The notes under the pieces were generated by a model that was not told where the DNA came from, made no database searches, and saw only the letters and a list, made by a program, of their open reading frames with translations. Below are positions 1-29,395 of a stretch of 64,000 nucleotides of DNA, in pieces (position 1 is the first letter of the stretch; every line of letters begins with the position of its first letter). Source of the DNA: Eledone cirrhosa (taxonomy: Eukaryota); the NCBI GenBank assembly GCA_964016885.1, contig OZ024756.1:11036001-11100000 (forward strand), in the 5' to 3' direction. A program made the position numbers and the translations under genes.

Positions 1-1262
1 CACTGCTGGAGTGTTGCACTGCTTGATGTATCACTGCTGGAGTGTTGCACTGCTTGATGTATCACTGCTGGAGTGTTGCAGTGCTGGAGTGTTGCACTGC
101 TTGATGTATCACTGCTGGAGTGTTGCACTGCTGGAGTGTTGCACTGCTTGATGTATCACTGCTGGAGTGTTGCAGTGCTGGAGTGGTGCACTGCTGGAGT
201 GTTGCACTGCTGGAGTGTTGCACTGCTGGAGTGGTGCACTGCTGGAGTGTTGCACTGCTGGAGTGGTGCACTGCTGGAGTGTATCACTGCTGGAGTGTTG
301 CACTGCTGGAGTGTTGCACTGCTGGAGTGTTGCACTGCTGGAGTGTTGCACTGCTGGAGTGTTGCACTGCTTGATGTATCACTGCTGGAGTGTTGCACTG
401 CTTGATGTATCACTGCTGGAGTGTTGCAGTGCTGGAGTGTTGCACTGCTTGATGTATCACTGCTGGAGTGTTGCACTGCTGGAGTGTTGCACTGCTTGAT
501 GTATCACTGCTGGAGTGTTGCAGTGCTGGAGTGGTGCACTGCTGGAGTGTTGCACTGCTGGAGTGTTGCACTGCTGGAGTGGTGCACTGCTGGAGTGTTG
601 CACTGCTGGAGTGGTGCACTGCTGGAGTGTTGCACTGCTTGATGTATCACTGCTGGAGTGTTGCACTGCTGGAGTGTTGCACTGCTGGAGTGTTGCACTG
701 CTGGAGTGTTGCACTGCTTGATGTATCACTGCTGGAGTGTTGCACTGCTGGAGTGGTGCACTGCTGGAGTGTTGCACTGCTTGATGTATCACTGCTGGAG
801 TGTTGCACTGCTGGAGTGTTGCAGTGCTGGAGTGTTGCAGTGCTGGAGTGTTGCACTGCTGGAGTGTTGCAGTGCTGGAGTGTTGCACTGCTGGAGTGTT
901 GCACTGCTGGAGTGTTGCACTGCTGGAGTGTTGCACTGCTGGAGGGTTGCACTGCTGGAGTGGCTGGAGTGTTGCACTGCTGGAGTGGTGCACTGCTGGA
1001 GTGTTGCACTGCTGGAGTGGTGCACTGCTGGAGTGTTGCACTGCTGGAGTGTTGCACTGCTGGAGTGTTGCACTGCTGGAGTGTTGCACTGCTGGAGTGT
1101 TGCACTGCTGGAGTGTTGCACTGCTGGAGTGTTGCACTGCTGGAGTGTTATACTGCTGGAGTGTTGCACTGCTGGAGTGTTGCACTGCTGGAGTGTTGCA
1201 CTGCTGGAGTGTTGCACTGCTGGAGTGTTATACTGCTGGAGTGTTGCACTGCTGGAGTGTTT
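1..1262. repeat. 16-bp minisatellite (CACTGCTGGAGTGTTG) with a 15-bp variant unit (CACTGCTTGATGTAT); continues past the window start
   Basis: Directly visible tandem units; identical ORF translations at 62..271 and 410..619 show a 348-bp internal duplication. Confidence 0.97.
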
Positions 1263-1670
1263 TCACTGTATGGCAATTGAATATGTCAGTATTTATGGCC
1301 AACAGAGACGTGGAGGTCTAGGATGGCTAGGAATTTTCTACCTATATTAGTTTTCACATTAAGTGCAAAAGGTGGTGCAAACCATATAACATCTCTATGT
1401 CTACGTTTTTTTTTCTTTCTAGATGTAGGACGGTGATATGGAGAGTACGTGATTCTTTTAGAGAAGCCACTGTTGCTTAGTGCTGAGTAGGATGCTGCCC
1501 TATCAAAGATGGCTTTGGTAGAAGAGAGGTTGGACACCTTCTTATTAATGTTATTGATAAGATTGAGGGTTGCTAGAGTCCTTATAAATGTACTTAAGTT
1601 TCTCACTGTGTTAGTGGAAGGCTCTGTATGTGCATGTCCGTAGGTCTAAATTAACGTCTAGGAAATTAAC
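1263..1670 (-). mobile_element. Penelope-like element relic (RT C-terminus/linker before GIY-YIG endonuclease)
   Basis: ORF 1286..1606 (KVSNLSSTKAIFDRAA...ALSNSGF...VIWFAPPFALNVKTNIGRKFL...GHKY) is closely paralogous to the PLE fragment at 10408-11220. Confidence 0.85.
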
Positions 1671-1869
1671 ATCATCATCATCACCACCACCAGATTTTCT
1701 CACCCTAAACCAACCCTGGCCAACAGAACTACCTGAAAATCACCGAAATACTTGATAATTACTGAAATAATTAATCAATTAAATATATGACCTTGTTTAA
1801 CCTTCTGCTTCGGAACCTTCATCTTTCAACTGGAGATCATAACTTTATCTCTCTTTACTTTCATTTGCT

Positions 1870-2411
1870 GCCTTCTTCTTCTTCTTCTTCTTCTTTGCCT
1901 TCTTCTTCTTCTATGCCTTCTTCTTCTTTTTCTTCTTCTTCTTCTTCTTCTTCTTCGGCTTCTTTTTCTTCATCTTCTTCTTCTTTGCCATCTTTTTCTT
2001 CTTCTTCTTCTTCTTCTTCTTCTTTGCCTTCTTCTTCTTTGGCTTCTTCTTTGCCTTCTTCTTCTTCTATGCCTTCTTCTTCTTCTTTTTCTTCTTCTTT
2101 TTCTTCTTCTTCTTCTTCTTCTTTGGCTTCTTCTTTGCCTTCTTCTTTGCCTTCTTTTTCTTCATCTTCTTCTTCTTTGCCATCTTTTTCTTCTTCTTCT
2201 TCTTCTTCTTCTTCTTCTTCTTCTTCTTCTTCTTCTTCTTTGCCTTCTTCTTCTTCATCTTCTTCTTTGCCTTCTTCTTTTTCTTCTTCTTTGCCTTCTT
2301 CGTCTTATTATTATTCTTCTTATTGTTCTTCTTCTTCTTTGCCTTCTTCTTTTTCTTGTTTTTCTTTTTCTTGTTCTTCTTCTTTGCCTTCTTCTTCTCC
2401 TCCTTCTCCTT
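1870..2411. repeat. Imperfect (TCT)n microsatellite
   Basis: Direct reading; explains poly-Ser/poly-Lys ORFs. Confidence 0.95.
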
Positions 2412-2699
2412 CTTTTAATTACACCAACACACACATCTGTGGAGTACTCAGCCACTTACCCATCAATCCTTCTATAAGTCTCTTCTGTCAGTCAGTCCTT
2501 CTATAAGCAGTCTCTTCTGCCAGTCAGTCCTTCTATAAGCAGTCTCTTCTGCCAGTCAATTCACTGAAACATTCATTGTTGAATCTTGTCAAAGTTTCTT
2601 CCATTGATTTACAAATAAAATTAGATTTGGAATCTTAACATAATCCACACCCACAGCATTTTATAACTGCTTGGACTGGGATAGCCATGATAGCCATGT

Positions 2700-5600
2700 T
2701 GGTATAGACATGACTGGGTATAAGGGGAATGAGGTGTAGTGTGTAGGAGAGGAGACTGCACTGGTATAGACATGACTGGGTATAAGGGGAATGAGTTGTA
2801 GTTTGTAGGAGAGGAGACTGCACTGGTATAGACATGACTGGGTATAAGAGGAATGAGGTGTAGTGTGTAGGAGAGGAGACAGCACTGGTATAGACATGAC
2901 TGGGTATAAGGGGAATGAGGTGTAGTGTGTAGGAGAGGAGACTGCACTGGTATAGACATGACTGGGTATAAGGGCAATGAGGTGTAGTGTCTAAGAGAGG
3001 AGACTGCACTGGTATAGACATGACTGGGTATAAGGGGAATGAGGTGTAGTGTGTAGGAGAGGAGACTGCACTGGTATAGACATGACTGGGTATAAGAGGA
3101 ATGAGGTGTAGTGTGTAGGAGAGGAGACTGCACTGGTATAGACATGACTGGGTATAAGGGGAATGAGGTGTAGTGTGTAGGAGAGGAGACTGCACTGGTA
3201 TAGACATGACTGGGTGTAAGGGGAATGGGGTGTAGTGTGTAGGAGAGGAGACTGCACTGGTATAGACATGACTGGGTATAAGGGGAATGAGGTGTAGTGT
3301 GTAGGAGAGGAGACTGCACTGGTATAGACATGACTGGGTATAAGAGGAATGAGTTGTAGTTTGTAGGAGAGGAGACTGTGGTGGTATAGACATGACTGGG
3401 TATAAGGGGAATGAGGTGTAGTGTGTAGGAGAGGAGACTGCACTGGTATAGACATGACTGGGTATAAGGGGAATGAGGTGTAGTGTGTAGGAGAGGAGAC
3501 TGCACTGGTATAGACATGACTGGGTATAAGGGGAATGAGGTGTAGTGTGTAGGAGAGGAGACTGCACTGGTATAGACATGACTGGGTATAAGAGGAATGA
3601 GGTGTAGTGTGTAGGAGAGGAGACTGCACTGGTATAGACATGACTGGGTATAAGAGGAATGAGTTGTAGTTTGTAGGAGAGGAGACTGTGGTGGTATAGA
3701 CATGACTGGGTATAAGGGGAATGAGGTGTAGTGTGTAGGAGAGGAGACTGCACTGGTATAGACATGACTGGGTATAAGGGGAATGAGGTGTAGTGTGTAG
3801 GAGAGGAGACTGCACTGGTATAGACATGACTGGGTATAAGAGGAATGAGGTGTAGTGTGTAGGAGAGGAGACTGCACTGGTATAGACATGACTGGGTATA
3901 AGAGGAATGAGTTGTAGTTTGTAGGAGAGGAGACTGCACTGGTATAGACATGACTGGGTATAAGGGGAATGAGGTGTAGTGTGTAGGAGAGGAGACTGCA
4001 CTGGTATAGACATGACTGGGTATAAGGGCAATGAGGTGTAGTGTCTAAGAGAGGAGACTGCACTGGTATAGACATGACTGGGTATAAGGGGAATGAGGTG
4101 TAGTGTGTAGGAGAGGAGACTGCACTGGTATAGACATGACTGGGTATAAGAGGAATGAGGTGTAGTGTGTAGGAGAGGAGACTGCACTGGTATAGACATG
4201 ACTGGGTATAAGGGGAATGAGGTGTAGTGTGTAGGAGAGGAGACTGCACTGGTATAGACATGACTGGGTGTAAGGGGAATGGGGTGTAGTGTGTAGGAGA
4301 GGAGACTGCACTGGTATAGACATGACTGGGTATAAGAGGAATGAGTTGTAGTTTGTAGGAGAGGAGACTGCACTGGTATAGACATGACTGGGTATAAGGG
4401 GAATGGGGTGTAGTGTGTAGGAGAGGAGACTGCACTGGTATAGACATGACTGGGTATAAGGGCAATGAGGTGTAGTGTCTAAGAGAGGAGACTGCACTGG
4501 TATGGACATGACTGGGTATAAGAGGAATGAGGTGTAGTGTGTAGGAGAGGAGACTGCACTGGTATAGACATGACTGGGTATAAGAGGAATGAGGTGTAGT
4601 GTGTAGGAGAGGAGACTGCACTGGTATAGACATGACTGGGTATAAGGGGAATGAGGTGTAGTGTGTAGGAGAGGAGACTGCACTGGTATAGACATGACTG
4701 GGTATAAGGGCAATGAGGTGTAGTGTCTAAGAGAGGAGACTGCACTGGTATAGACATGACTGGGTATAAGGGGAATGAGGTGTAGTGTGTAGGAGAGGAG
4801 ACTGCACTGGTATAGACATGACTGGGTATAAGGGCAATGAGGTGTAGTGTCTAAGAGAGGAGACTGCACTGGTATAGACATGACTGGGTATAAGAGGAAT
4901 GAGGTGTAGTGTGTAGGAGAGGAGACTGCACTGGTATAGACATGACTGGGTATAAGAGGAATGAGGTGTAGTGTGTAGGAGAGGAGACTGCACTGGTATA
5001 GACATGACTGGGTATAAGGGCAATGAGGTGTAGTGTCTAAGAGAGGAGACTGCACTGGTATAGACATGACTGGGTATAAGGGGAATGGGGTGTAGTGTGT
5101 AGGAGAGGAGACTGCACTGGTATAGACATGACTGGGTATAAGAGGAATGAGGTGTAGTGTGTAGGAGAGGAGACTGCACTGGTATAGACATGACTGGGTA
5201 TAAGGGAAATGAGGTGTAGTGTGTAGGAGAGGAGACTGCACTGGTATAGACATGACTGGGTATAAGGGGAATGGGGTGTAGTTTGTAGGAGAGGAGACTG
5301 CACTGGTATAGACATGACTGGGTATAAGGGGAATGAGGTGTAGTGTGTAGGAGAGGAGACTGCACTGGTATAGACATGACTGGGTATAAGAGGAATGAGG
5401 TGTAGTGTGTAGGGGAGGAGACTGCACTGGTATAGACATGACTGGGTATAAGAGGAATGGGGTGTAGTGTGTAGGAGAGGAGACTGCACTGGTATAGACA
5501 TGACTGGGTATAAGGGGAATGAGGTGTAGTTTGTAGGAGAGGAGACTGCACTGGTATAGACATGACTGGGTATAAGAGGAATGAGGTGTAGTGTGTAGGA

Positions 5601-7725
5601 GAGGAGACTGCACTGGTATAGACATGACTGGGTATAAGGGGAATGAGGTGTAGTGTGTAGGAGAGGAGACTGCACTGGTATAGACATGACTGGGTATAAT
5701 GGGAATGATGTGTAGTGTGTAGGAGAGGAGACTGCACTGGTATAGACATGACTGGGTATAAGAGGAATGAGGTGTAGTGTGTAGGAGAGGAGACTGCACT
5801 GGTATAGACATGACTGGGTATAAGAGGAATGAGGTGTAGTTTGTAGGAGAGGAGACTGCACTGGTATAGACATGACTGGGTATAAGGGGAATGGGGTGTA
5901 GTGTGTAGGAGAGGAGACTGTGGTGGTATAGACATGACTGGGTATAAGGGGAATGGGGTGTAGTGTGTAGGAGAGGAGACTGCACTGGTATAGACATGAC
6001 TGGGTATAATGGGAATGAGTTGTAGTTTGTAGGAGAGGAGACAGCACTGGTATAGACATGACTGGGTATAAGGGGAATGGGGTGTAGTGTGGAGGAGAGG
6101 AGACTGCACTGGTATAGACATGACTGGGTATAAGAGGAATGAGGTGTAGTGTGTAGGAGAGGAGACTGCACTGGTATAGACATGACTGGGTATAAGGGGA
6201 ATGGGGTGTAGTGTGTAGGAGAGGAGACTGCACTGGTATAGACATGACTGGGTATAAGGGGAATGGGGTGTAGTGTGTAGGAGAGGAGACTGTGGTGGTA
6301 TAGACATGACTGGGTATAAGGGGAATGGGGTGTAGTGTGTAGGAGAGGAGACTGCACTGGTATAGACATGACTGGGTATAAGGGAAATGAGGTGTAGTGT
6401 GTAGGAGAGGAGACTGCACTGGTATAGACATGACTGGGTATAAGGGGAATGGGGTGTAGTTTGTAGGAGAGGAGACTGCACTGGTATAGACATGACTGGG
6501 TATAAGGGGAATGAGGTGTAGTGTGTAGGAGAGGAGACTGCACTGGTATAGACATGACTGGGTATAAGAGGAATGAGGTGTAGTGTGTAGGGGAGGAGAC
6601 TGCACTGGTATAGACATGACTGGGTATAAGAGGAATGGGGTGTAGTGTGTAGGAGAGGAGACTGCACTGGTATAGACATGACTGGGTATAAGGGGAATGA
6701 GGTGTAGTTTGTAGGAGAGGAGACTGCACTGGTATAGACATGACTGGGTATAAGAGGAATGAGGTGTAGTGTGTAGGAGAGGAGACTGCACTGGTATAGA
6801 CATGACTGGGTATAAGGGGAATGAGGTGTAGTGTGTAGGAGAGGAGACTGCACTGGTATAGACATGACTGGGTATAATGGGAATGATGTGTAGTGTGTAG
6901 GAGAGGAGACTGCACTGGTATAGACATGACTGGGTATAAGAGGAATGAGGTGTAGTGTGTAGGAGAGGAGACTGCACTGGTATAGACATGACTGGGTATA
7001 AGAGGAATGAGGTGTAGTTTGTAGGAGAGGAGACTGCACTGGTATAGACATGACTGGGTATAAGGGGAATGGGGTGTAGTGTGTAGGAGAGGAGACTGTG
7101 GTGGTATAGACATGACTGGGTATAAGGGGAATGGGGTGTAGTGTGTAGGAGAGGAGACTGCACTGGTATAGACATGACTGGGTATAATGGGAATGAGTTG
7201 TAGTTTGTAGGAGAGGAGACAGCACTGGTATAGACATGACTGGGTATAAGGGGAATGGGGTGTAGTGTGGAGGAGAGGAGACTGCACTGGTATAGACATG
7301 ACTGGGTATAAGAGGAATGAGGTGTAGTGTGTAGGAGAGGAGACTGCACTGGTATAGACATGACTGGGTATAAGGGGAATGGGGTGTAGTGTGTAGGAGA
7401 GGAGACTGCACTGGTATAGACATGACTGGGTATAAGGGGAATGGGGTGTAGTGTGTAGGAGAGGAGACTGTGGTGGTATAGACATGACTGGGTATAAGGG
7501 GAATGGGGTGTAGTGTGTAGGAGAGGAGACTGCACTGGTATAGACATGACTGGGTATAAGGGAAATGAGGTGTAGTGTGTAGGAGAGGAGACTGCACTGG
7601 TATAGACATGACTGGGTATAAGGGGAATGGGGTGTAGTGTGTAGGAGAGGAGACTGTGGTGGTATAGACATGACTGGGTATAAGGGGAATGAGGGGCAGT
7701 GTGTAGGAGAGGAGACTGTGGTGGT
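2700..7725. repeat. 62-bp minisatellite, about 81 units, derived from RTE LINE coding sequence
   Basis: Unit ACTGGGTATAAGGGGAATGAGGTGTAGTGTGTAGGAGAGGAGACTGCACTGGTATAGACATG; ungapped match to the RTE at about 56933-56994 (minus). Confidence 0.95.
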
Positions 7726-8092: not shown

Positions 8093-8904
8093 ATTTGGCA
8101 AACTTGTAGCATCTTATCATTTATAAAAATGTATTCAACTCAGTTTGAGCTGACTTTTCTTTTTTTTCTTTTCTTTTCCAAGTGAGAAAATCTGTTAATA
8201 TTCTCCCATCAAGGATGTCAGTCCTTCCTTGTCCAGTACACTTCATCCATTCTACTGACCTTCTCTGTTTCAATGTCATGTAGTTATTTCATAAGGATAA
8301 TTACTCTCCTTTGAATTTATCGGACTTAGGAGAAATCCTGCTTCTCAGCTTTCAACTCATTTGTTATTTAATGCATATTTTCAGGTCATTAGCCATGGAA
8401 CATTCTTAGAAATAGCCAGCTTTGCTTTTTTCCTTTTCTTTTCTTTTTTTTCATCCACCCCTCTCCTTGTCCTTATCTTTAATACAGAAGCTAGCTTGCT
8501 GAAGTCTGTAATTTACTGCTGTCACCTTTGTCTATGTTCTTAGGATTGGAATCTACTGATGAAGATTAAAACAGCATTAGAACCTGAACGGGTTTTATGA
8601 GATTCTCACACAAAACAAGACAGAAATTAATATGATTTCAGCTTATTGTTACTGGCAGAGAGAAAACACGAACCTGCTAAATACTGTTGATTTAGTTTTA
8701 TTGTTGCTTTGGTAACTGATACATTCATGAGTTAGTTTACTAACCGGATGCTTGTTTAATTATCAAAGTTCTTTTGTCATACATTTTGTGACCTTCTCAA
8801 TAACTATTTTTGCTCCTTTCTATCTCCTCTTTGTTTTTATCTTGTTCTATTAACTCCATCTTGTCTTTCTGTGGTATGTATGTGATAGCCCCATAACAAC
8901 CAGT

Positions 8905-9175
8905 TGGAGTTGTAGGAGAACCATACACAGGGGTTCTTGGGCATTTTAAGCCTGGTAGAGCCTAGCTCCACTCAAGGTCTGAATACAGGAGATTTCTTCT
9001 AGAGAAGAATACCGAGTGATAGAGGGGAGGTGAAAAAGTGATATAGAGGAAGGATCGGCCCCATTACTTGACTGGTACTTTATTTATTGACCTCAAAAGG
9101 ATGAAAGCAAAATTGACCATGGTGGGATTTGAACTCAGAGAGAAAAGCTAGAATGAATACTGTAAAGCATTCTAT
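8905..9175 (-). mobile_element. SINE family A variant with alternative 3' extension
   Basis: Contains ACTGGTACTTTATT...AGGATGAAAG...GGGATTTGAACTCAG like the other family A copies; 8905-9050 matches the reverse complement of about 62185-62330. Confidence 0.7.
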
Positions 9176-9204
9176 CCAACATTTTATACTTGATTTATGG
9201 AAAA

Positions 9205-9245
9205 TAGTCTTTACATTTCAGACACTAGTCCTTCATCAGAAGATA
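9205..9245 (-). ncRNA. Degenerate minimal hammerhead ribozyme motif
   Basis: Minus strand: tatctt CTGATGA a ggac tagt gtct GAAA tg TA aagacta; stems I and II pair but stem III is nearly deleted. Confidence 0.5.
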
Positions 9246-9404
9246 GTATGAGAAAGAAAAGAAATAGGATGATAGATGAGAATAAGAAAAGAAAAAGAAA
9301 ATGTAAAAAGATTTCTTTTCAAGAGGAAAACAGGTGTGTATATATATATATATATATATTATTCAAAATATTAATAAATGAAGACATTCACATAATCAAA
9401 ATAT

Positions 9405-9475
9405 ATGTTTTATTATATATATTTCGGAGGTACTGTGCTGTTTTTTTCAGTACGTCCTCATCAGATAAAATACAT
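9405..9475 (-). ncRNA. Minimal type I hammerhead ribozyme (left-arm copy)
   Basis: Reverse complement of 9612-9681 with one extra loop base. Confidence 0.8.
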
Positions 9476-9611
9476 GAATTGATGTATGACATACCTCAAC
9501 TGTGTTGATGGTTCAATTCCAGTCTTGGCAGGACTGGAATTGAACCATCAACAGTCTGCCAAGACTGGAATTGAACCATCAAGACCGTTGAGGTTTGTCA
9601 TACATCAATTC

Positions 9612-9681
9612 ATGTATTTTATCTGATGAGGACGTACTGAAAAAACAGCACAGTACCTCCGAAATATATATAATAAAACAT
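9612..9681 (+). ncRNA. Minimal type I hammerhead ribozyme
   Basis: ttttat CTGATGA gga-c-gtactg (loop) cagtac-c-tcc GAAA tatata TA ataaaa; complete core, stems I and II pair, palindromic stem III; predicted cut after 9672. Confidence 0.85.
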
Positions 9682-9839
9682 ATATTTTGATTATGTGAAT
9701 GTCTTCATTTATTAATATTTTGAATAATATTAATAACTCCAGAAAACTTCTTTGTAGAGTGCTTTTAATCTATTGTAAAACTATATTCATTGAGTAATCA
9801 ATGAACTTTATTAACATTTGGTTATATATATATATATAT

Positions 9840-9951
9840 ATATAGATGAGATTTTACAGGACTAGAACTGTTTCATTCTTTAGAAATCATCAGATTCCTG
9901 ATGATTTCTAAAGAATGAAACAGTTCTAGTCTTGTAGAATCTCATCTATAT
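9840..9951. repeat. Foldback hairpin (54-bp arms, 4-nt spacer) made of two back-to-back HHR cores
   Basis: TCATCAG-attc-CTGATGA at the centre; right arm CTGATGA tttctaaagaat GAAAC agttcta GTC; starts in (TA)n. Confidence 0.85.
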
Positions 9952-10029
9952 TAAAACTTTTATACTCTGCAATGTATTGAGTACCTTACTTACTGTGGTT
10001 ACCTCCGATTCAACCCGGAATAACGTACC

Positions 10030-10061
<32 letters not shown>

Positions 10062-10117
10062 TATATATGTATATTTAATTTTATATATATATATATATTA
10101 GATTTATATATATATCA

Positions 10118-10405
10118 TCCTCATCATCATCCTTTTACGTCCGCTTTTTCCTGATTGCAAGGGTGGGACAGGTCCTTTTCAGCACAGCATCTCTCCATTC
10201 GTCACAATCCTTTGTCAGCTTCAGCTATCTGAGGTCAGCTCTCACCACCTCCGCCCATGATTTTTGTGGTCTTCTTCTACTGCGTCTTCTTTCCACTGGG
10301 ATTTCTTGGCACTTCTTTATTCAGCGATCATCCTCCATATGCATCACACTCTTCTCTCCCGCACACTACAGCCTATCCCTCTTATACACAGTTTCACTCT
10401 CAACT
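10118..10405 (-). mobile_element. RTE-clade LINE 3' fragment with (GAT)n tail
   Basis: Closely similar to 56703-57005 (TTCAGCACAGCATCTCTCCATTCGTCA, CCACTGGGATTTCTTGGCACTTCTTTA). Confidence 0.85.
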
Positions 10406-10407
10406 CG

Positions 10408-11220
10408 TCTACATAGTCATTAACGACATTAGTAAGAGGGTTTCCAACCTCTCCTCCAGCAAAGCCATCTTTGATAGGGCAGCACCCTATTATAATTTAC
10501 CACTGAGTAACAGCGGCTTCTCCGACAAAATCACGTACTCTCCAGATCACCGCCCTACATCTAGAAAGAAAAAACCTAGACAAAAAGATATCATATGGTT
10601 CACACCACCTTTCTCAATGGGAAAACTAAGGCAGGTAAAAAATTCCTAGCTCTCATAGAATCTCCATTTCCCTGTTGGCCATAAATACCAAAAGATATTT
10701 AATTGCCATACAGTAAAAATAGGGTACTCTTGCACCAACACTATTAAATCCTACATCACCAAGAAATGCAAAAGCCCTCCACCATATGGATGCTCATGTA
10801 GAAGGCCTGAAACATGTCCACTAGACCAACAGTGCAACACTCCGGTGGTGATATACCAAGCAGAGGTTACCTCCACCAGCCAGAACCACCAAACTGAAGC
10901 ATGGACCTATGTCGGTATATCCGAGAGCCAGTTTAAAAACCGGTACCTGAATCATGAAACAACCTTCAGATATCCCGAGAAAAAACATGCCACCTGGCTT
11001 GCAAATCACATATGGAACCTTAAGAACAATGGCACACCTTTTCCCATCAAATGGAGGACGTTAGAAAGATCTACCGCCTATGTGAATGGGTCGAAATTTG
11101 TCAACTTTGTAATTCTGAAAAATGCTATATACTCTCACAATTAGCTTCAGATAAGCACTGCCTCAACACACGGCTTGATTGCTTTGGTAACTGCCTTCAT
11201 GAGAAGAGTACATTTTGAGT
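10408..11220 (+). mobile_element. 5'-truncated, frameshifted Penelope-like element: RT C-terminus, Cys linker and GIY-YIG endonuclease
   Basis: AIFDRAAPYYN, IIWFTPPFS, CSCRRPETCPLDQQC, VIYQAEV...YVGISESQFKNRYLNH, LANHIWNLK. Confidence 0.9.
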
Positions 11221-11517
11221 AAATAACTTAGACCTGACTAACATGTCTAGAAGTATACTTTGATTTTCTGACTAGTTTGTATATCAAAGAAATTGGATTC
11301 TTTGAGTCAGCTAGAAAAAATTATTTTTCTTCCATTTTTATTAAATCTTGACTGTGGTCTCTCAAGTGTTACCTCCCTTGATATTACCATCTAATTTTTT
11401 TAAATAACTACCTTTTCCTAATAAATTTTTAAATTACCTGCCTTTGATATATTTCTAAAAAGAAAGCACAATCAAGCCCAACCGGCCATCTTTATTTTTA
11501 ATTTTTCTTATGACAGA

Positions 11518-11564
11518 CTTAATGAGTTGTTGTCCAGAACCCAACGAAACTTAAGTAACTATTT
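11518..11564 (+). ncRNA. Degenerate hammerhead motif in the 3' region of the PLE
   Basis: cTTAATGA gttg (loop) caac GAAA cttaag TA actat; first box is mutated, stem II and palindromic stem III are intact. Confidence 0.55.
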
Positions 11565-11651
11565 ATGCCCTTGTTGTAATTATTTATACTAAACTCATCC
11601 TATGGACTAAATGCTTTTACCCTTGGATATTTCTACCAAACTTTTACTACA

Positions 11652-11711
<60 letters not shown>

Positions 11712-11741
11712 AGGTAAGAAGAAGCTTTTATTTTTGCAACT

Positions 11742-11802
<61 letters not shown>

Positions 11803-12399
11803 AAAGTTCTATTTAAAATTGTTGGGATACAACAAGTAAATATTTTTATAACTGATATAAAGCACTCAACAAGTATTTGGAGTAGATATACGATATTAAT
11901 AAATGGAAACTATATTTATAAAACCATATCTATTTCATTATACATATTTCAGGGATACCAAATTAAATTATGGTATGCCTTCAGACAAAATACAATATAT
12001 AACAGTTTTACAAATAAGCTTTGACGTACCCTATTAAAATGCAACCATTATTTTTGGAAGCCATCCGGATACATTTGGAAACCATACACAGACACTTACA
12101 TGTGAGAGAAATATAGGAAGTTGATGATAGCAAGCACTCCCCAACATTTCAGTTCTAGCTACATAATTATTCTTGGTGGTATTCAGACTAAAATTAAAAT
12201 TAACTTTTCTGATAGGTACAAGAGCAAGAAATTTAATTAATGTAATTTTAATTAATTTTCAATAATGAATGTTATTTAATTGATGTCAGGTGTGTTGGTA
12301 AGTTTTAATTCATCATAGCACTTTGTTAATATTTGAACTGTTATGAGTGGTTGGTTAGGATAGGATTTCACCTTTGATATTACTTTGGTCCTTAATGCT

Positions 12400-12915
12400 G
12401 GTTACTGTGGCTGTCTTAGTTGTGGTTGTTGTTATATTGAGTTTGTTGTTGTTATTAATGCTGTTGTTGGTGGTGGTGGTGGTGTTGTTGTGGTTGTTGT
12501 TGTTGCTCGTACTGCTGTTGTCATATTGGGTTTGTTGTTGTTATTAATGCTGTTGTTGTTGGTGTTGTTGTTGTAATGGTTCGTACTGCTGTTGTCATAT
12601 TGGGTTTGTTGTTGTTATTAATGCTGTTGTTGTTGGTGTTGTTGTTGTAATGGCTCATACTGCTGTTGTCATATTGGGTTTGTTGTTGTTATTAATGCTG
12701 TTATTGGTGTTGTTGTTGTTGTTGTAATGGCTCGTACTGCTGTTGTCATATTGGGTTTGTTGTTGTTATTAATGCTGTTGTTGGTGTTGTTGTTGTTGTT
12801 GTCATTACTGTTGTTGTTGGTGCTGGTGTAGTATTGAGGTAGTGCTGGTGTAGTATTGAGGTAGTGGTGGTGGTGGTGGTGTAGTCTGTAGTGGTGGTGG
12901 TGGTGGTGGTGGTGG
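12400..12915. repeat. (GTT/GGT)-rich low-complexity tract with internal repeats of about 75 bp
   Basis: Recurrent TACTGCTGTTGTCATATTGGGTTTGTTGTTGTTATTAATGCTG. Confidence 0.85.
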
Positions 12916-12924
12916 TTAGGGTTA

Positions 12925-15900
12925 TGCACACACATACACACTACCAACACGCATACATACACACTAACAACACATACACATACACACTACCAACATGCAC
13001 ACATACACACTAACAACACATACACATACACACTACCAACATGCACACATACACACTACCAACACGCACACATACACACTACCAACACGCACACATACAC
13101 ACTACCAACACACACACATACACACTACCAACACATACACATACACACTACCAACACATACACATACACACTACCAACACATACACACTAACAACACACA
13201 CACATACACACTACCAACACACACACATACACACTACCAACACATACACACTACCAACACATACACACTACCAACACATACACACTACCAACACACACAC
13301 ATACACACTACCAACACATACACATACACACTACCAACACATACACACTAACAACACACACATACACACTACCAACACACACACATACATACTACCAACA
13401 CATACACACTAACAACACACACATACACACTACCAACACACACACATACACACTACCAACACATACACATACACACTACCAACACATACACATACACACT
13501 ACCAACACATACACATACACACTAACAACAAACACATGCACACTACCAATACACACTACCAACACACATACATACTACCAACACATACACATACACACTA
13601 CCAACACGCACACATACACACTACCAACACGCACACATACACACTACCAACACACACACATACACACTACCAACACGCACACATACACACTACCAACACG
13701 CACACATACACACTACCAACACACACACATACACACTACCAACACGCACACATACACACTACCAACACGCACACATACACACTACCAACACGCACACATA
13801 CACACTACCAACACATACACATACACTCTACCAACACGCACACATACACACTACCAACATACACACATACACACTACCAACACATACACATACACACTAC
13901 CAACACATACACATACACACTACCAACACACATACACACTACCAACACATACACACTACCAACACATACACACTACCAACACACACACATACACACTACC
14001 AACACGCACACATACACACTACCAACACACACACATACACACTACCAACACATACACACTACCAACACATACACACTACCAACACACACATACACACTAC
14101 CAACACATACACACTAACAACACACACATACACACTACGAACACACACACATACACACTACCAGCACATACACATACACACTACCAACACACATACACAC
14201 TACCAACACATACACATACACACTATCAACACGCACACATACACACTACCAACACGCACACATACACACTACCAACACGCACACATACACACTACCAACA
14301 CGCACACATACACACTACCAACACGTACACATACACACTACCAACACGCACACATACACACTACCAACACGCACACATACACACTACCAACATACACACA
14401 TACACACTACCAACACATACACATACACACTACCAACACGCACACATACACACTACCAACATACACACTACCAACACGCACACATACACACTACCAACAC
14501 ATACACATACACACTACCAACACATACACACTACCAACACATACACACTAACAACACACACACATACACACTACCAACACACATACACACTACCAACACA
14601 TACACACTACCAACACATACACACTAACAACACACACATACACACTACCAACACATACACACTACCAACACACACATACACACTACCAACACATACACAT
14701 ACACACTACCAACATGCACACATACACACTACCAACACATACACACTACCAACACATACACGCTAACAACACACACATACACACTACCAACACATACACA
14801 CTACCAACACATACACACTAACAACACACACATACACACTACCAACACATACACATACACACTACCAACACATACACATACACACTACCAACACATACAC
14901 ATACACACTAACAACACACACATACACACTACCAACACACACACATACACACTACCAACACATACACATACACACTACCAACACACATACACACTACCAA
15001 CACATACACATACACACTACCAACACATACACACTACCAACACGCACACACTACCAACACACACACATACACACTACCAACACGCACACATACACACTAC
15101 CAACACATACACACTACCAACACACACACATACACACTACCAACACATACACATACACACTACCAACACGCACACATACACACTACCAACACGCACACAT
15201 ACACACTACCAACACGCACACATACACACTACTAACATACACACATACACACTACCAACACATACACATACACACTACCAACACGCACACATACACACTA
15301 CCAACATACACACATACACACTACCAACACATACACATACACACTACCAACACATACACACTACCAACACATACACATACACACTACCAACACATACACA
15401 CTACCAACACATACACATACACACTAACAACACACACGCATACACATACACACTACCAACACGCACACATACACACTACCAACACATACACACTACCAAC
15501 ACACACACACATACACACTACCAACACGCACACATACACACTACCAACACGCACACATACACACTACCAACACACACACATACACACTACCAACACGCAC
15601 ACATACACACTACCAACACGCACACATACACACTACCAACACGCACACATACACACTACCAACACGCACACATACACACTACCAACACGCACACATACAC
15701 ACTACCAACACGCACACATACACACTACCAACACATACACATACACTCTACCAACACGCACACATACACACTACCAACATACACACATACACACTACCAA
15801 CACATACACATACACACTACCAACACATACACATACACACTACCAACACACATACACACTACCAACACATACACACTACCAACACATACACACTACCAAC

Positions 15901-18900
15901 ACACACACATACACACTACCAACACGCACACATACACACTACCAACACACACACATACACACTACCAACACATACACACTACCAACACATACACACTACC
16001 AACACACACATACACACTACCAACACATACACACTAACAACACACACATACACACTACCAACACACACACATACACACTACCAGCACATACACATACACA
16101 CTACCAACACACATACACACTACCAACACATACACATACACACTACCAACACGCACACATACACACTACCAACACGCACACATACACACTACCAACACGC
16201 ACACATACACACTACCAACACGTACACATACACACTACCAACACGCACACATACACACTACCAACACGCACACATACACACTACCAACATACACACATAC
16301 ACACTACCAACACATACACATACACACTACCAACACGCACACATACACACTACCAACATACACACTACCAACACGCACACATACACACTACCAACACACA
16401 CACATACACACTACCAACACACATACACACTACCAACACATACACACTACCAACACATACACACTAACAACACACACATACACACTACCAACACATACAC
16501 ACTACCAACACACACATACACACTACCAACACATACACATACACACTACCAACATGCACACATACACACTACCAACACATACACACTACCAACACACACA
16601 CACATACACACTACCAACACGCACACATACACACTACCAACATGCACACATACACAAAACCAACACATACACACTACCAACACACACACATACACACTAC
16701 CAACACATACACATACACACTACCAACACATACACATGCACACTACCAACACGCACACATACACACTACCAACACACACACATACACACTACCAACACAT
16801 ACACACTACCAACACATACACATACACACTACCAACACATACACACTAACAACACACACACATACACATACACACTACCAACACACTACCAACACATACA
16901 CATACACACTACCAACACATACACGCTAACAACACACACATACACACTACCAACACATACACACTACCAACACATACACACTAACAACACACACATACAC
17001 ACTACCAACACATACACATACACACTACCAACACATACACATACACACTACCAACACATACACATACACACTAACAACACACACATACACACTACCAACA
17101 CACACACATACACACTACCAACACATACACATACACACTACCAACACACATACACACTACCAACACATACACATACACACTACCAACACATACACACTAC
17201 CAACACGCACACACTACCAACACACACACATACACACTACCAACACGCACACATACACACTACCAACACATACACACTACCAACACACACACATACACAC
17301 TACCAACACATACACATACACACTACCAACACGCACACATACACACTACCAACACGCACACATACACACTACCAACACGCACACATACACACTACTAACA
17401 TACACACATACACACTACCAACACATACACATACACACTACCAACACGCACACATACACACTACCAACATACACACATACACACTACCAACACATACACA
17501 TACACACTACCAACACATACACACTACCAACACATACACATACACACTACCAACACATACACACTACCAACACATACACACTAACAACACACACGCATAC
17601 ACATACACACTACCAACACGCACACATACACACTACCAACACATACACACTACCAACACACACACACATACACACTACCAACACGCACACATACACACTA
17701 CCAACACGCACAAATACACACTACCAACACACACACATACACACTACCAACACACACACATACACACTACCAACACATACACATACACACTACCAACACA
17801 TACACACTACCAACACATACACACTAACAACACACACATACACACTACCAACACATATACACTACCAACACACACATACACACTACCAACACATACACAT
17901 ACACACTACCAACATGCACACATACACACTACCAACACAAACACACTACCAACACACACACACATACACACTACCAACACGCACACATACACACTACCAA
18001 CATGCACACATACACACTACCAACACATACACACTACCAACACACACACATACACACTACCAACACATACACATACACACTACCAACACATACACATGCA
18101 CACTACCAACACGCACACATACACACTACCAACACACACACATAAACACTACCAACACATACACACTACCAACACATACACATACACACTACCAACACAT
18201 ACACACTAACAACACACACACATGCACATACACACTACCAACACACTACCAACACATACACATACACACTACCAACACATACACGCTAACAACACACACA
18301 TACACACTACCAACACATACACACTACCAACACATACACACTAACAACACACACATACACACTACCAACACATACACATACACACTACCAACACATACAC
18401 ATACACACTACCAACACATACACATACACACTAACAACACACACATACACACTACCAACACACACACATACACACTACCAACACATACACATACACACTA
18501 CCAACACACATACACACTACCAACACATACACATACACACTACCAACACATACACACTACCAACACGCACACACTACCAACACACACACATACACACTAC
18601 CAACACGCACACATACACACTACCAACACATACACACTACCAACACACACACATACACACTACCAACACATACACATACACACTACCAACACGCACACAT
18701 ACACACTACCAACACGCACACATACACACTACCAACACGCACACATACACACTACTAACATACACACATACACACTACCAACACATACACATACACACTA
18801 CCAACACGCACACATACACACTACCAACATACACACATACACACTACCAACACATACACATACACACTACCAACACATACACACTACCAACACATACACA

Positions 18901-20655
18901 TACACACTACCAACACATACACACTACCAACACATACACATACACACTAACAACACACACGCATACACATACACACTACCAACACGCACACATACACACT
19001 ACCAACACATACACACTACCAACACACACACACATACACACTACCAACACACACACATACACACTACCAACACGCACAAATACACACTACCAACACACAC
19101 ACATACACACTACCAACACACACACATACACACTACCAACACATATACACTACCAACACACACATACACACTACCAACACATACACATACACACTACCAA
19201 CATGCACACATACACACTACCAACACATACACACTACCAACACACACACATACACACTACCAACACATACACATACACACTACCAACACATACACATGCA
19301 CACTACCAACACGCACACATACACACTACCAACACACACACATACACACTACCAACACATACACATACACACTACCAACACATACACACTAACAACACAC
19401 ACACATACACATACACATTACCAACACACTACCAACACATACACATACACACTACCAACACATACACATACACACTACCAACACATACGCATACACACTA
19501 ACAACACACACATACACACTACCAACACACACACATACACACTACCAACACATACACATACACACTACCAACACACATACACACTACCAACACATACACA
19601 TACACACTACCAACACATACACACTACCAACACGCACACACTACCAACACACACACATACACACTACCAACACGCACACATACACACTACCAACACATAC
19701 ACACTACCAACACACACACATACACACTACCAACACATACACATACACACTACCAACACGCACACATACACACTACCAACACGCACACATACACACTACC
19801 AACATGCACACATACACACTACTAACATACACACATACACACTACCAACACATACACATACACACTACCAACATACACACATACACACTACCAACACATA
19901 CACATACACACTACCAACACATACACACTACCAACACATACACATACACACTACCAACACATACACACTACCAACACATACACATACACACTAACAACAC
20001 ACACGCATACACATACACACTACCAACACGCACACATACACACTACCAACACATACACACTACCAACACACACACACATACACACTACCAACACGCACAC
20101 ATACACACTACCAACACGCACAAATACACACTACCAACACACACACATACACACTACCAACACATACACATACACACTACCAACACATACACACTACCAA
20201 CACACACACAAACACACTACCAACACACACACATACACACTACCAACACATACACATACACACTACCAACACATACACATACACACTACCAACATACACA
20301 CATACACACTACCAACACATACACGTACACACTATCAACACATACACACTAACAACACACACACATACACATACACACTACCAACACACATACACACTAC
20401 CAACACATACACATACACATACACACTACTAACACATACACACTAACAACACACACATACACACTACCAACACGCACACACTACCAACACACACACATAC
20501 ACACTACCAACACGCACACCTACACACTACCAACACGCACACATACACACTAGCAACACACACATATACACACTACCAACACACACACATACACACTACC
20601 ATCACACACACATACACACTACCAACACATACACACTACCAACACACACACACCC
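12925..20655. repeat. 7.7-kb compound CA-rich minisatellite (ACACATACACACTACCAAC with variable CA spacers)
   Basis: Direct reading; explains the His/Thr-rich ORFs. Confidence 0.97.
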
Positions 20656-20842
20656 TACACCCACACCCTTACCACACTACCCCCTACGCCACCTGTTAAC
20701 CAGTTGTTTATTTCTACTCTCACATCCACCACAATCTCATTTATTTTAGCTTTGTTACCAAGGTTACTAATAACAGCTACAATTATGTTTCCTATTGTGC
20801 AAGAAACCATATTTAATCTTGAAGTAATAGAATTTTAAAAGA

Positions 20843-23800
20843 TGTCAGAGTTATTAGAACATAAGATAGAATATTGGGTGTTATTCTGGCAGTCTCTGGT
20901 CTCAGTTCAAATCTTACCAATGTCAGAGTTATTAGAACATAAGATAGAATATTGGGTGATATTCTGGCACTTTCTGGTCTCAGTTCAAATCTTACCAATG
21001 TCAGAGTTATTAGAACATAAGATAGAATATTGGGTGATATTCTGGCACTCTCTGGTCTCAGTTCAAATCTTACCAATGTCAGAGTTATTAGAACATAAGA
21101 TAGAATATTGGGTGATATTCTGGCACTCTCTGGTCTCAGTTCAAATCTTACCAATGTCAGAGTTATTAGAACATAAGATAGAATATTGGGTGATATTCTG
21201 CCACTCTCTGGTCTCAGTTCAAATCTTACCAATGTCAGAGTTATTAGAACATAAGATAGAATATTGGGTGATATTCTGGCACTTTCTGGTCTCAGTTCAA
21301 ATCTTACCAATGTCAAAGTTATTAGAACATAAGATAGAATATTGGGTGATATTCTGGCACTTTCTGGTCTCAGTTCAAATCTTACCAATGTCAGAGTTAT
21401 TAGAACATAAGATAGAATATTGGGTGATATTCTGCCACTCTCTGGTCTCAGTTCAAATCTTACCAATGTCAGAGTTATTAGAACATAAGATAGAATATTG
21501 GGTGATATTCTGGCACTTTCTGGTCTCAGTTCAAATCTTACCAATGTCAGAGTTATTAGAATATAAGATAGAATATTGGGTGATATTCTGCCACTCTCTG
21601 GTCTCAGTTCAAATCTTACCAATGTCAGAGTTATTAGAACATAAGATAGAATATTGGGTGTTATTCTGGCAGTCTCTGGTCTCAGTTCAAATCTTACCAA
21701 TGTCAGAGTTATTAGAACATAAGATAGAATATTGGGTGATATTCTGCCACTCTCTGGTCTCAGTTCAAATCTTACCAATGTCAGAGTTATTAGAACATAA
21801 GATAGAATATTGGGTGATATTCTGCCACTTTCTGGTCTCAGTTCAAATCTTACCAATGTCAGAGTTATTAGAACATAAGATAGAATATTGGGTGATATTC
21901 TGGCACTCTCTGGTCTCAGTTCAAATCTTACCAATGTCAGAGTTATTAGAACATAAGATAGAATATTGGGTGATATTCTGGCACTCTCTGGTCTCAGTTC
22001 AAATCTTACCAATGTCAGAGTTATTAGAACATAAAATAGAATATTGGGTGATATTCTGCCACTCTCTGGTCTCAGTTCAAATCTTACCAATGTCAGAGTT
22101 ATTAGAACATAAGATAGAATATTGGGTGATATTCTGGCACTTTCTGGTCTCAGTTCAAATCTTACCAATGTCAGAGTTATTAGAACATAAGATAGAATAT
22201 TGGGTGATATTCTGGCACTCTCTGGTCTCAGTTCAAATCTTACCAATGTCAGAGTTATTAGAACATAAGATAGAATATTGGGTGATATTCTGGCACTTTC
22301 TGGTCTCAGTTCAAATCTTACCAATGTCAGAGTTATTAGAACATAAGATAGAATATTGGGTGATATTCTGCCACTCTCTGGTCTCAGTTCAAATCTTACC
22401 AATGTCAGAGTTATTAGAACATAAGATAGAATATTGGGTGATATTCTGGCACTCTCTGGCCTCAGTTCAAATCTTACCAATGTCAGAGTTATTAGAACAT
22501 AAGATAGAATATTGGGTGATATTCTGCCACTTTCTGGCCTCAGTTCAAATCTTACCAATGTCAGAGTTATTAGAACATAAGATAGAATATTGGGTGATAT
22601 TCTGCCACTTTCTGGCCTCAGTTCAAATCTTACCAATGTCAGAGTTATTAGAACATAAGATAGAATATTGGGTGATATTCTGGCACTTTCTGGCCTCAGT
22701 TCAAATCTTACCAATGTCAGAGTTATTAGAACATAAGATAGAATATTGGGTGATATTCTGCCACTTTCTGGCCTCAGTTCAAATCTTACCAATGTCAGAG
22801 TTATTAGAACATAAGATAGAATATTGGGTGATATTCTGGCAGTCTCTGGCCTCAGTTCAAATCTTACCAATGTCAGAGTTATTAGAACATAAGATAGAAT
22901 ATTGGGTGATATTCTGGCACTCTCTGGTCTCAGTTCAAATCTTACCAATGTCAGAGTTATTAGAACATAAGATAGAATATTGGGTGATATTCTGCCACTC
23001 TCTGGTCTCAGTTCAAATCTTACCAATGTCAGAGTTATTAGAACATAAGATAGAATATTGGGTGATATTCTGGCAGTCTCTGGTCTCAGTTCAAATCTTA
23101 CCAATGTCAGAGTTATTAGAACATAAGATAGAATATTGGGTGATATTCTGCCACTCTCTGGTCTCAGTTCAAATCTTACCAATGTCAGAGTTATTAGAAC
23201 ATAAGATAGAATATTGGGTGATATTCTGGCACTTTCTGGTCTCAGTTCAAATCTTACCAATGTCAGAGTTATTAGAACATAAGATAGAATATTGGGTGAT
23301 ATTCTGGCACTCTCTGGTCTCAGTTCAAATCTTACCAATGTCAGAGTTATTAGAACATAAGATAGAATATTGGGTGATATTCTGGCACTCTCTGGTCTCA
23401 GTTCAAATCTTACCAATGTCAGAGTTATTAGAACATAAGATAGAATATTGGGTGATATTCTGGCACTCTCTGGTCTCAGTTCAAATCTTACCAATGTCAG
23501 AGTTATTAGAACATAAGATAGAATATTGGGTGATATTCTGGCACTTTCTGGTCTCAGTTCAAATCTTACCAATGTCAGAGTTATTAGAACATAAGATAGA
23601 ATATTGGGTGATATTCTGGCACTCTCTGGTCTCAGTTCAAATCTTACCAATGTCAGAGTTATTAGAACATAAGATAGAATATTGGGTGATATTCTGGCAC
23701 TCTCTGGTCTCAGTTCAAATCTTACCAATGTCAGAGTTATTAGAACATAAGATAGAATATTGGGTGATATTCTGGCACTCTCTGGTCTCAGTTCAAATCT

Positions 23801-25836
23801 TACCAATGTCAGAGTTATTAGAACATAAGATAGAATATTGGGTGATATTCTGGCACTCTCTGGTCTCAGTTCAAATCTTACCAATGTCAGAGTTATTAGA
23901 ACATAAGATAGAATATTGGGTGATATTCTGGCACTTTCTGGTCTCAGTTCAAATCTTACCAATGTCAGAGTTATTAGAACATAAGATAGAATATTGGGTG
24001 ATATTCTGGCACTCTCTGGTCTCAGTTCAAATCTTACCAATGTCAGAGTTATTAGAACATAAGATAGAATATTGGGTGATATTCTGCCACTCTCTGGTCT
24101 CAGTTCAAATCTTACCAATGTCAGAGTTATTAGAACATAAGATAGAATATTGGGTGATATTCTGCCACTCTCTGGTCTCAGTTCAAATCTTACCAATGTC
24201 AGAGTTATTAGAACATAAGATAGAATATTGGGTGATATTCTGGCACTTTCTGGTCTCAGTTCAAATCTTACCAATGTCAAAGTTATTAGAACATAAGATA
24301 GAATATTGGGTGATATTCTGGCACTTTCTGGTCTCAGTTCAAATCTTACCAATGTCAGAGTTATTAGAACATAAGATAGAATATTGGGTGATATTCTGCC
24401 ACTCTCTGGTCTCAGTTCAAATCTTACCAATGTCAGAGTTATTAGAACATAAGATAGAATATTGGGTGATATTCTGGCACTTTCTGGTCTCAGTTCAAAT
24501 CTTACCAATGTCAGAGTTATTAGAACATAAGATAGAATATTGGGTGATATTCTGGCACTCTCTGGTCTCAGTTCAAATCTTACCAATGTCAGAGTTATTA
24601 GAACATAAGATAGAATATTGGGTGATATTCTGGCACTTTCTGGTCTCAGTTCAAATCTTACCAATGTCAGAGTTATTAGAACATAAGATAGAATATTGGG
24701 TGATATTCTGCCACTCTCTGGTCTCAGTTCAAATCTTACCAATGTCAGAGTTATTAGAACATAAGATAGAATATTGGGTGATATTCTGGCACTCTCTGGC
24801 CTCAGTTCAAGTCTTACCAATGTCAGAGTTATTAGAACATAAGATAGAATATTGGGTGATATTCTGGCACTCTCTGGTCTCAGTTCAAATCTTACCAATG
24901 TCAGAGTTATTAGAACATAAGATAGAATATTGGGTGATATTCTGGCACTTTCTGGTCTCAGTTCAAATCTTACCAATGTCAGAGTTATTAGAACATAAGA
25001 TAGAATATTGGGTGATATTCTGCCACTTTCTGGCCTCAGTTCAAATCTTACCAATGTCAGAGTTATTAGAACATAAGATAGAATATTGGGTGATATTCTG
25101 CCACTTTCTGGCCTCAGTTCAAATCTTACCAATGTCAGAGTTATTAGAACATAAGATAGAATATTGGGTGATATTCTGCCACTTTCTGGCCTCAGTTCAA
25201 ATCTTACCAATGTCAGAGTTATTAGAACATAAGATAGAATATTGGGTGATATTCTGGCACTCTCTGGTCTCAGTTCAAGTCTTACCAATGTCAGAGTTAT
25301 TAGAACATAAGATAGAATATTGGGTGATATTCTGGCACTTTCTGGTCTCAGTTCAAATCTTACCAATGTCAGAGTTATTAGAACATAAGATAGAATACTG
25401 GGTGATATTCTGGCACTCTCTGATCTCAGTTCAAGTCTTACCAATGTCAGAGTTATTAGAACATAAGATAGAATATTGGGTGATATTCTGCCACTTTCTG
25501 GCCTCAGTTCAAATCTTACCAATGTCAAAGTTATTAGAACATAAGATAGAATATTGGGTGATATTCTGGCACTCTCTGGTCTCAGTTCAAGTCTTACCAA
25601 TGTCAGAGTTATTAGAACATAAGATAGAATATTGGATGATATTCTGCCACTCTCTGGTCTCAGTTCAAATCTTACCAATGTCAAAGTTATTAGAACATAA
25701 GATAGAATATTGGGTGATATTCTGCCACTCTCTGGTCTCAGTTCAAATCTTACCAATGTCAGAGTTATTAGAACATAAGATAGAATATTGGGTGATATTC
25801 TGGCAGTCTCTGGCCTCAGTTCAAATCTTACCAATG
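20843..25836. repeat. Homogeneous 78-bp satellite, about 64 units, resembling a SINE tRNA-like head
   Basis: Unit GTCAGAGTTATTAGAACATAAGATAGAATATTGGGTGATATTCTGGCACTCTCTGGTCTCAGTTCAAATCTTACCAAT. Confidence 0.97.
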
Positions 25837-25888
25837 TATGAATTTAACTCTCAAATCTTAAAATTATAATTAAAATATTTAATTATAA

Positions 25889-25978
25889 CACTTGTCCAAG
25901 GTGCCACACAGCAGGATAGAACTCAGGAACCTGTGGTTATGAAGCAAACCCCTTAAATCACACAGTCATACTTGCTCA
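25889..25978 (-). mobile_element. SINE head fragment, related to 53085-53180
   Basis: CACTTGTCCAAGGTGCC...GAAC shared with CACTTGTCGAAGGTGCC...GAAC near 53090. Confidence 0.55.
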
Positions 25979-26447
25979 CATATAACAATCTTAAAATTAT
26001 AATTAAAAAATGTAACTCCCTTCTTGGACAATATGAATTTTGATTAAAATACTTATTAAATTTTTAAATAGAAAGAAATATTTTCAATTCTACAACCATG
26101 TAATTTAAACTCTAATCTTATCTTAATTTTCTTAATTTGGAAAATTAATTTTTTTATTTTCTGTGAAACACAAAATTTTCATTATAAAATTTAAAAGAAA
26201 AAAACTTTATAAAAAAAAATAAATAAATTTGCGTTTCTGGGAAATAAAAATTTTCATTACAGGATATTTTAAAAATTATTAATTAGAAAAATTAATTTTA
26301 CTTTATTTTAAAAAAATATGATTTTATTATAATTCCTTCTAATTTACTAAGGCCTTCCCCACCACCCCACCGCCAACGCCCAATAACTTAACTCATCATT
26401 ATCTTGATTATTCCTTTTCTTTTAATTAAAAATTATATAATTCTATT

Positions 26448-28991: not shown

Positions 28992-29000
<9 letters not shown>

Positions 29001-29335: not shown

Positions 29336-29395
29336 CATAACTTGTGTGTTACACCTCTATTCTTTTAAATATATATATATATATATATATATATA

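Follow-up and report, generated by a model that had tools for sequence, protein, structure and literature searches.

Hammerhead-bearing hairpins in (TA)n runs of Eledone cirrhosa: probable extremely truncated Penelope-like insertions

Anatomy of the hairpins

The analyzed window, a 64,000-nucleotide stretch of repeat-rich animal DNA from Eledone cirrhosa, holds two consecutive hairpins set between three runs of TA. Unit 1 starts at the (TA)10 run at 9339-9358, its left target end, with a short inverted arm (9356-9531) that carries the element sense on the minus strand and whose outer end overlaps the run by 4 nt of alternating AT. This arm is followed by a pivot at 9532-9555 (+), consisting of a 24-nt piece duplicated (slipped) from the arm start, by the sense arm at 9556-9730 (+), and by a one-sided, multi-copy tail of about 92 nt at 9731-9822 (+). 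The (TA)11 run at 9823-9844 is common to both units. Unit 2 continues with a short inverted arm at 9840-9893 (-), again overlapping the TA run, here by 5 nt of alternating AT, a 4-nt pivot loop (9894-9897), a sense arm at 9898-9951 (+) and a one-sided, multi-copy tail of 78 nt at 9952-10029 (+), and ends at the (TA)11 run at 10030-10051, its right target end.

The arms of unit 1 (175 bp) are identical in 172 of 176 aligned columns, with 3 mismatches and 1 gap, and those of unit 2 (54 bp) match at 52 of 54 positions. The first-pass annotation had described two hairpins with the order (TA)n, inverted arm, sense arm, extension and (TA)n, and this layout was recovered in both units, with flanks of 10 or 11 TA repeats. 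The longest arm in 30 local shuffles of 8100-12400 measured 8-20 bp, against 90 bp observed for an ungapped half-arm. The predicted fold energies are -294 kcal/mol for unit 1 and -96 kcal/mol for unit 2, and the long dsRNA that had been anticipated is predicted for either unit if the region is transcribed. The three TA runs are nearly equal in length (20, 22 and 22 nt), as if duplicated with each insertion.

Two more foldbacks had been reported to share this layout. Unit 3 (28992-29368) does so in its 172-bp arms (170/172 matching), its tail of about 34 nt and the TA on both sides; the motif scan of the window found no CTGANGA core in it, and a PLE (Penelope-like element) origin is inferred from its geometry alone. 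Unit 4 (49675-49935) is likewise a foldback, with 108-bp arms (106/108 matching), a 45-nt spacer and a core on both arms, at 49782 (-) and 49828 (+). The resemblance at 49675-49980 goes no further, as only the left arm has a full helix I and no TA run of 6 or more units flanks the element. The four window hairpins represent four families unrelated in sequence. A foldback of different geometry from the PLE stubs lies at 30926-31280 (85%), where two inverted tRNA-derived SINE-like copies surround a short TA run.

The pivots of units 1-3 are located on micro-palindromes, whereas unit 4 has none. The pivot of unit 1 adjoins a 5-bp micro-inverted repeat and shows low read depth, and that of unit 3 is a loop-less 12-bp palindrome. 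The pivot of unit 2 is a short repeat that reaches 5 bp in family reads with an extra base at 9892 (22 contigs; 126 of 1,347 reads). In units 1, 2 and 3, the outer end of the short arm consists of alternating AT (4, 5 and 6 nt, respectively) that stays in register with the flank, a micro-homology counted at three ends and set against a background of 1.5-5% that understates the true null several-fold. The tailed ends have little AT overlap.

Hammerhead motifs

Both arms of unit 1 contain a complete type I hammerhead, at 9408-9470 (-) in the inverted arm, where the core starts at 9464 and the predicted cut falls after 9414, and at 9617-9678 (+) in the sense arm, with a predicted cut after 9672. 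The sense-arm motif has a helix I of 6 bp, a helix II of 9 bp with one C-C mismatch, and a helix III of 2-3 bp with a palindromic loop. This ribozyme is G-C-closed, unlike the Hydra-clade form of unit 2, a type I hammerhead at 9892-9942 (+) with U-U flanking helix II, an ACAG helix III and a predicted cut after 9936. A doubt over the unit 2 ribozyme, which is without G10.1-C11.1, was dropped, as the U-U form occurs among Hydra families. In the inverted arm of unit 2 the core is present and the 5' strand of helix I is missing; only the sense arm passed the helix I test, because the pivot cuts inside helix I. The proposal of a hammerhead on each arm thus holds entirely for unit 1, and for unit 2 as far as the two cores are concerned. 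In all, four arms have the core with its three helices: both of unit 1, the sense one of unit 2 and the left one of unit 4.

The motif CTGATGA-N2-30-GAAA occurs 12 times in the window, compared with 0.75 expected and a maximum of 4 in 100 shuffles. Structured type I motifs numbered 8 in the 27 kb of non-satellite DNA, while 100 shuffles gave a mean of 0.18 and a maximum of 2. No Rfam hammerhead model matched at its gathering score, the sole hammerhead match being HH9 (15.3 bits, E 4.8); the Rfam microRNA matches, far under their gathering scores, reflect hairpin shape only. An exact-motif scan of metagenome contigs returned 0 matches.

Homologues of the unit 1 family also occur unpaired. One, at 50350-50461 (+), comprises the ribozyme and an arm homologue at about 70% identity; in its helix II, 5 of the 9 pairs are changed on both sides relative to unit 1 and 0 are broken, with the C-C mismatch kept. 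The other, at 11800-11990 (-), is degenerate; its 3' end also halts at a TA run, and the fold of this 11985 copy repeats the helix II shape of unit 1 (3 bp, mismatch, 6 bp). Counting these two, five hammerhead stubs in the window are unpaired: 9216-9239 (-), 28717-28741 (-), 63015-63046 (+), 50360-50405 (+) and about 11985 (-). The stub at 9239 is itself a high-depth family, and its likeness ends 16-23 nt upstream of the core.

Folding of the hairpin RNA is predicted to compete strongly with ribozyme formation. The unpaired probability of CUGAUGA is at most 0.01 in units 1 and 2, and the same bases yield -4.8 kcal/mol as a ribozyme fold against -101.3 kcal/mol as a duplex. In read-through RNA of either strand, the ribozyme is accordingly predicted to be buried in the duplex. 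The 5' ends meet centrally and the antisense arm would be transcribed first from either side; self-cleavage would therefore not be expected.

Family depth, pivots and joints in public reads

Four of 23 candidate runs (X1, X4, X5 and X21) were aligned to 9180-10110 at 80% likeness; X6-X20, which have small shares, were left out. The candidate list contained no RNA run, which carries no information on expression. X1 is possibly the source sample, X4 belongs to the same study as X1, X21 consists of raw reduced-representation Illumina reads with the same species label from a separate study, and X5 is another organism. In X1, 14,257 contigs align on 9180-10110. Summed word depth in this run, which does not equal copy number, was 37 in the flank bin 9308-9339, 75,000-190,000 in the sense arm of unit 1, 53,000-153,000 in its tail and over 1.1 million in the arm and tail of unit 2. 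Read depth over arms and tails thereby exceeds that of the flank by 3-4 orders of magnitude. Single-copy arms had been named as the outcome that would count against the first-pass reading; the arms are instead very high-copy in X1, and their families also occur in X21 and X5. The description of the extension as unique did not hold, since by read depth the tails are as multi-copy as the arms. Depth decreases toward the 5' end, from 270,182 to 68,402 with both arms summed, the gradient that 5' truncation would produce.

The unit 1 pivot bin reached only 1.3% of the arm depth in X1 (2,452) and 1.5 reads in X21, and most of the X1 value is attributable to 8 arm positions inside the bin. Among the 15 joints listed of 47, all called at 80% likeness, at which joints can be false, 10 lead from the left arm or the pivot to different positions on the right side, 3 are opposite-strand, 1 is a tail deletion and 1 is a tandem. 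Other copies carry further sequence upstream of the pivot, or they fold back at another point. Family 2, to which unit 2 belongs, continues upstream of the pivot in 25 contigs and in 788 reads (X21) at 9891, and 189 contigs depart at 9895 with mixed sequence (agreement 0.42), departures that may reflect many independent 5' ends. One or other pivot region of the window is crossed by 6 of the 24 pieces listed, a listing that favors long pieces and is followed by 15,051 more: records 1, 2 and 6 of X1, records 9 and 14 of X4, and record 24 of X5. Record 6 of X1, with 14 differences, crosses the unit 2 pivot gap-free. Pivots are thus not purely random, and some recur near the 5' edge of the ribozyme.

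None of the records listed spans the locus. An empty (TA)n site would appear as a skipping joint, and none was present among the 15 of 47 joints listed; the reads are cut at TA runs, and a duplication is hidden in (TA)n. At the listed family-variable sites within the arms, both arms carry the window letter in 17 of 21 cases, and at 9595 and 9932 one arm carries the family letter. The shared letters therefore fit one template plus later change.

Two side observations concern family 2. A head-to-tail junction from 9956-9961 to 9891, with a period of about 78 nt, was supported in X21 by 75 reads with 17 starts and at most 66 letters on the shorter side, and in X1 by six variants among those listed; this tandem may represent two ribozymes in a row or a retrozyme-like repeat of very short length. 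In addition, CAG/G after T-rich or AT-rich sequence is found upstream of helix I in family 2 reads (9891-9898) and in the left arm of unit 4 (49783-49800). It resembles a 3' splice site and could explain why 5' ends gather there; in Drosophila virilis Penelope, the end of the intron coincides with the 5' boundary of helix I (PMC4209133).

Candidate source elements and the origin of the hairpins

The hairpins themselves encode no protein. A broken Hydra-type PLE ORF remnant at 10416-11200 (+), physically separate from the hairpins, retains the RT thumb, the CxCX5C linker and GIY-YIG. A second such remnant at 47836-48760 (+), which also has the CxCX5C linker, lies 1.6 kb upstream of the 50360 ribozyme in the same orientation. 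Broken PLE ORFs were also located at about 1290-1670 (-) and at 60893-61345. A full HMMER search with the 10677-11141 piece recovered 940 relatives at E 1e-10 or better, of which the long ones measure 600-790 aa and have YRDD, DKT (DKS in one), mostly RWK or RWR, and a cysteine-rich linker. The protein motifs of the remnants and their relatives fit the Hydra clade, almost all families of which insert into (TA)n (PMC8557442). Two word-indexed protein searches gave no matches, unlike the full HMMER search; Pfam gave only sub-threshold GIY-YIG, in 1 of 5 window pieces and 1 of 7 relatives, and a protein cluster look-up supplied no useful names.

The 70% homologue at 50360 is suggestive, though no more than that, of a link between the unit 1 family and the 47836-48760 remnant across intervening insertions; the DNA between the two is bracketed by a 36-bp repeat. 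No ORF of the same subfamily could be connected with either arm family. In units 1-3, tblastn with 21 long relatives detected no similarity to the ORF, and the tails thus gave no sign of encoding its start. Directly after the 50360 stub, broken non-LTR reverse transcriptase frames with a YMDD motif occupy 50463-51855 (-), putatively of the R4/Dong type. The hairpin layout recurs at larger size in a head-to-head pair of ORF-bearing PLEs at 60645-60878 and 60893-61437. This pair is older, with unequal 5' truncation, and a SINE-like insert abuts its left copy. Young minisatellite arrays fill about two thirds of the window (1-7718, 12927-28540 and 34886-47888), with units of 16, 62, 23/46, 78, 21 and 36 nt. 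The 16-nt array (1-1261) abuts a PLE ORF remnant and resembles the PLE stretch 10826-10863, and the 62-nt unit resembles 10342-10392; both units may therefore be repeat-derived.

The closest published counterparts are the endonuclease-bearing (EN+) PLE insertions of the Hydra clade, which share with our units an inverted 5'-truncated head-to-head copy, a one-sided tail and a (TA)n target (PMC8557442). Hydra PLEs have a type I ribozyme near the 3' end (PMC8557442); in the window, a type I hammerhead is present in the terminal repeat of units 1, 2 and 4 and absent from unit 3. The two ribozyme features of unit 2 also recur there: File S2, tallied row by row over supplement part 2, has U-U at helix II in 14 of 25 Hydra families and an ACAG helix III in 5 of 25 (PMC8557442). 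The same source records that Penelope-13_HM includes a truncated copy in inverse orientation and has one ribozyme per strand. The CxCX5C linker of the published PLEs is found here in the neighboring ORF remnants. The differences are that the units are without any ORF and that the tails of units 1 and 2 (92 and 78 nt) are longer than the published 30-40 bp (PMC8557442), the tail of unit 3 measuring about 34 nt. The supplement of that paper, or Repbase consensus sequences, may already contain these families.

Other systems resemble the units in part. In Schistosoma mansoni, opposite-strand ribozyme pairs 100-700 bp apart have been ascribed to truncated PLEs and, like unit 1, combine opposite strands with a long helix II and a short palindromic helix III; the paper devotes one sentence to them, without pivot or tail anatomy, and the cores of unit 2 are only 4 nt apart (PMC4209133). 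Penelope pLTRs of Adineta vaga share the head-to-head junction palindrome and an optional tail, for which self-priming was proposed, but these elements are low-copy and ORF-bearing with clear target duplications, while our units are very high-copy microsatellite stubs (PMC3846280). Non-LTR retrozymes are likewise short, non-coding and PLE-related with a type I ribozyme, yet they form head-to-tail tandems releasing circular RNA, whereas the units are head-to-head with a ribozyme predicted to be sequestered (PMC7229834; bioRxiv 10.64898/2026.07.22.740005). The units are not retrozymes, because no head-to-tail ribozyme tandem is present at the locus; the family 2 tandem junction occurs elsewhere.

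We consider it probable, with good confidence, that each hairpin is a one-off, extremely 5'-truncated EN+ PLE insertion, likely of the Hydra clade, which retained only the ribozyme-bearing 3' end. The first-pass annotation had left the choice between truncated PLE insertions and a non-autonomous hairpin element, and the former is favored by the head-to-head layout, the tail on one side only, the flanking TA, the high depth of the families, the mixed pivots of other copies, the micro-homologies at the joints and the unpaired stubs elsewhere in the window. Very short de novo insertions of PLEs, with a median of 128 bp, have been published from microsatellites (PMC9977147). Under this reading, the GIY-YIG domain of the element would nick a (TA)n run, and the element RT would begin cDNA at the tail end, homology not being needed. 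Once 130-270 nt were copied, synthesis would halt, in many cases close to the 5' edge of the hammerhead, whereupon the 3' end of the cDNA would fold on a micro-palindrome and copy itself into the second arm. This arm would end at ATAT or TATAT, joined (or cut and joined) to the other target end, and the tail would therefore remain on one side only. Unit 2 would have inserted into the same TA run as unit 1, and the end product would be a dead stub with its ribozyme hidden in dsRNA.

The second arm was thus probably made by cDNA fold-back, which, within the truncated-PLE reading, we prefer by a clear but not decisive degree over priming from both target strands. In the latter scheme, doubtful yet deserving of attention, both nicked target strands would prime cDNA at two start sites, with and without the tail, and the short cDNAs would be joined head-to-head by micro-homology. 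A lizard PLE protein cuts at AT-rich sites, cuts and extends both strands, and has two internal RT start sites that bound the tail (PMC11167929). Moreover, 266 of 587 X21 molecules end at 9725, near the short-arm end at 9730, although an indel at 9724 is common beside this pile and the reads are of the reduced-representation type. Breakpoints of other copies also speak for this scheme: left and right usually differ, with offsets of 28-88 nt in 6 of the 9 mappable cases (a tally that omits the extra 9878-9915 row). Against this, the arms share alleles at family-variable sites, and the short arms end on AT micro-homology while published initiation is homology-independent. The AT-ended short arms, the palindromic pivots and the shared letters therefore lead us to favor tail-end priming, early stop, fold-back and AT closure. 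Points against the overall reading are the lack of an ORF link for either arm family, pivots that are not purely random, the pivot of unit 4 without a micro-palindrome, and tails that at 92 and 78 nt are longer than the published 30-40 bp (PMC8557442).

A separate non-autonomous hairpin element, which would be transcribed as an entire foldback and re-inserted as a unit by PLE proteins, appears improbable. Non-autonomous PLE derivatives have been published (PMC8557442; bioRxiv 10.64898/2026.07.22.740005), the pivot falls at a similar position in some other copies, above all those of family 2, and the unit 2 pivot is crossed gap-free in one record, with one similar pivot in another organism. However, the four window hairpins belong to four unrelated families, arms and tails are high-copy while hardly any other copy has the unit 1 pivot, and the pivots differ among copies; in family 2, a natural micro-palindrome at the pivot could yield recurrence without copying, the predicted ribozyme, locked in the duplex, cannot fold in hairpin RNA, and the RT would have to cross a perfect duplex. 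We give a similarly small chance to the narrower idea that family 2 includes a 190-nt hairpin subfamily of its own, always pivoting at the ribozyme 5' edge and retrotransposed whole by Hydra-type proteins, alongside a 78-nt head-to-tail ribozyme repeat. If true, one PLE terminal repeat would have given rise to two non-autonomous offshoots, one of them a mobile dsRNA source. In our literature search, with most subscription papers outside its scope, none of the papers listed dealt with a PLE-derived hairpin family that is mobile. Still less credible is an assembly or library artefact produced by fold-back chimeric reads: the listed records all fall short of spanning the locus, and the best runs share only 0.58-0.70 of words, but the arms differ, end at element-internal AT sites and have one-sided tails and TA runs at three loci, and same-family fold-back joints are present in raw Illumina reads of another individual. 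The long inverted arms and TA flanks recall a MITE or foldback DNA transposon, the most remote of the explanations. The tail on one side, the unpaired copies, the fall in depth toward the 5' end and the PLE ribozymes in the arms contradict it; flush terminal inverted repeats in all copies were not observed, given these one-sided tails and unpaired copies, and the units are not MITEs because their ends are asymmetric.

As truncated PLE insertions, the hairpins are ordinary retroelement debris: the inverted truncated copy, the tail, the TA target and the paired opposite-strand ribozymes are already published PLE features. Their value is that they offer a clean record of how PLE insertion is completed, a step still unsolved. 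From the joints, we predict pivots on micro-palindromes near the ribozyme 5' edge, short arms that end in ATAT or TATAT, and arms copied from one template. Annotation will probably often mistake such structures for MITEs or microRNA hairpins. In abundant families, thousands of perfect hairpins would constitute a potential dsRNA pool for editing and small-RNA pathways, if they lie within transcripts.
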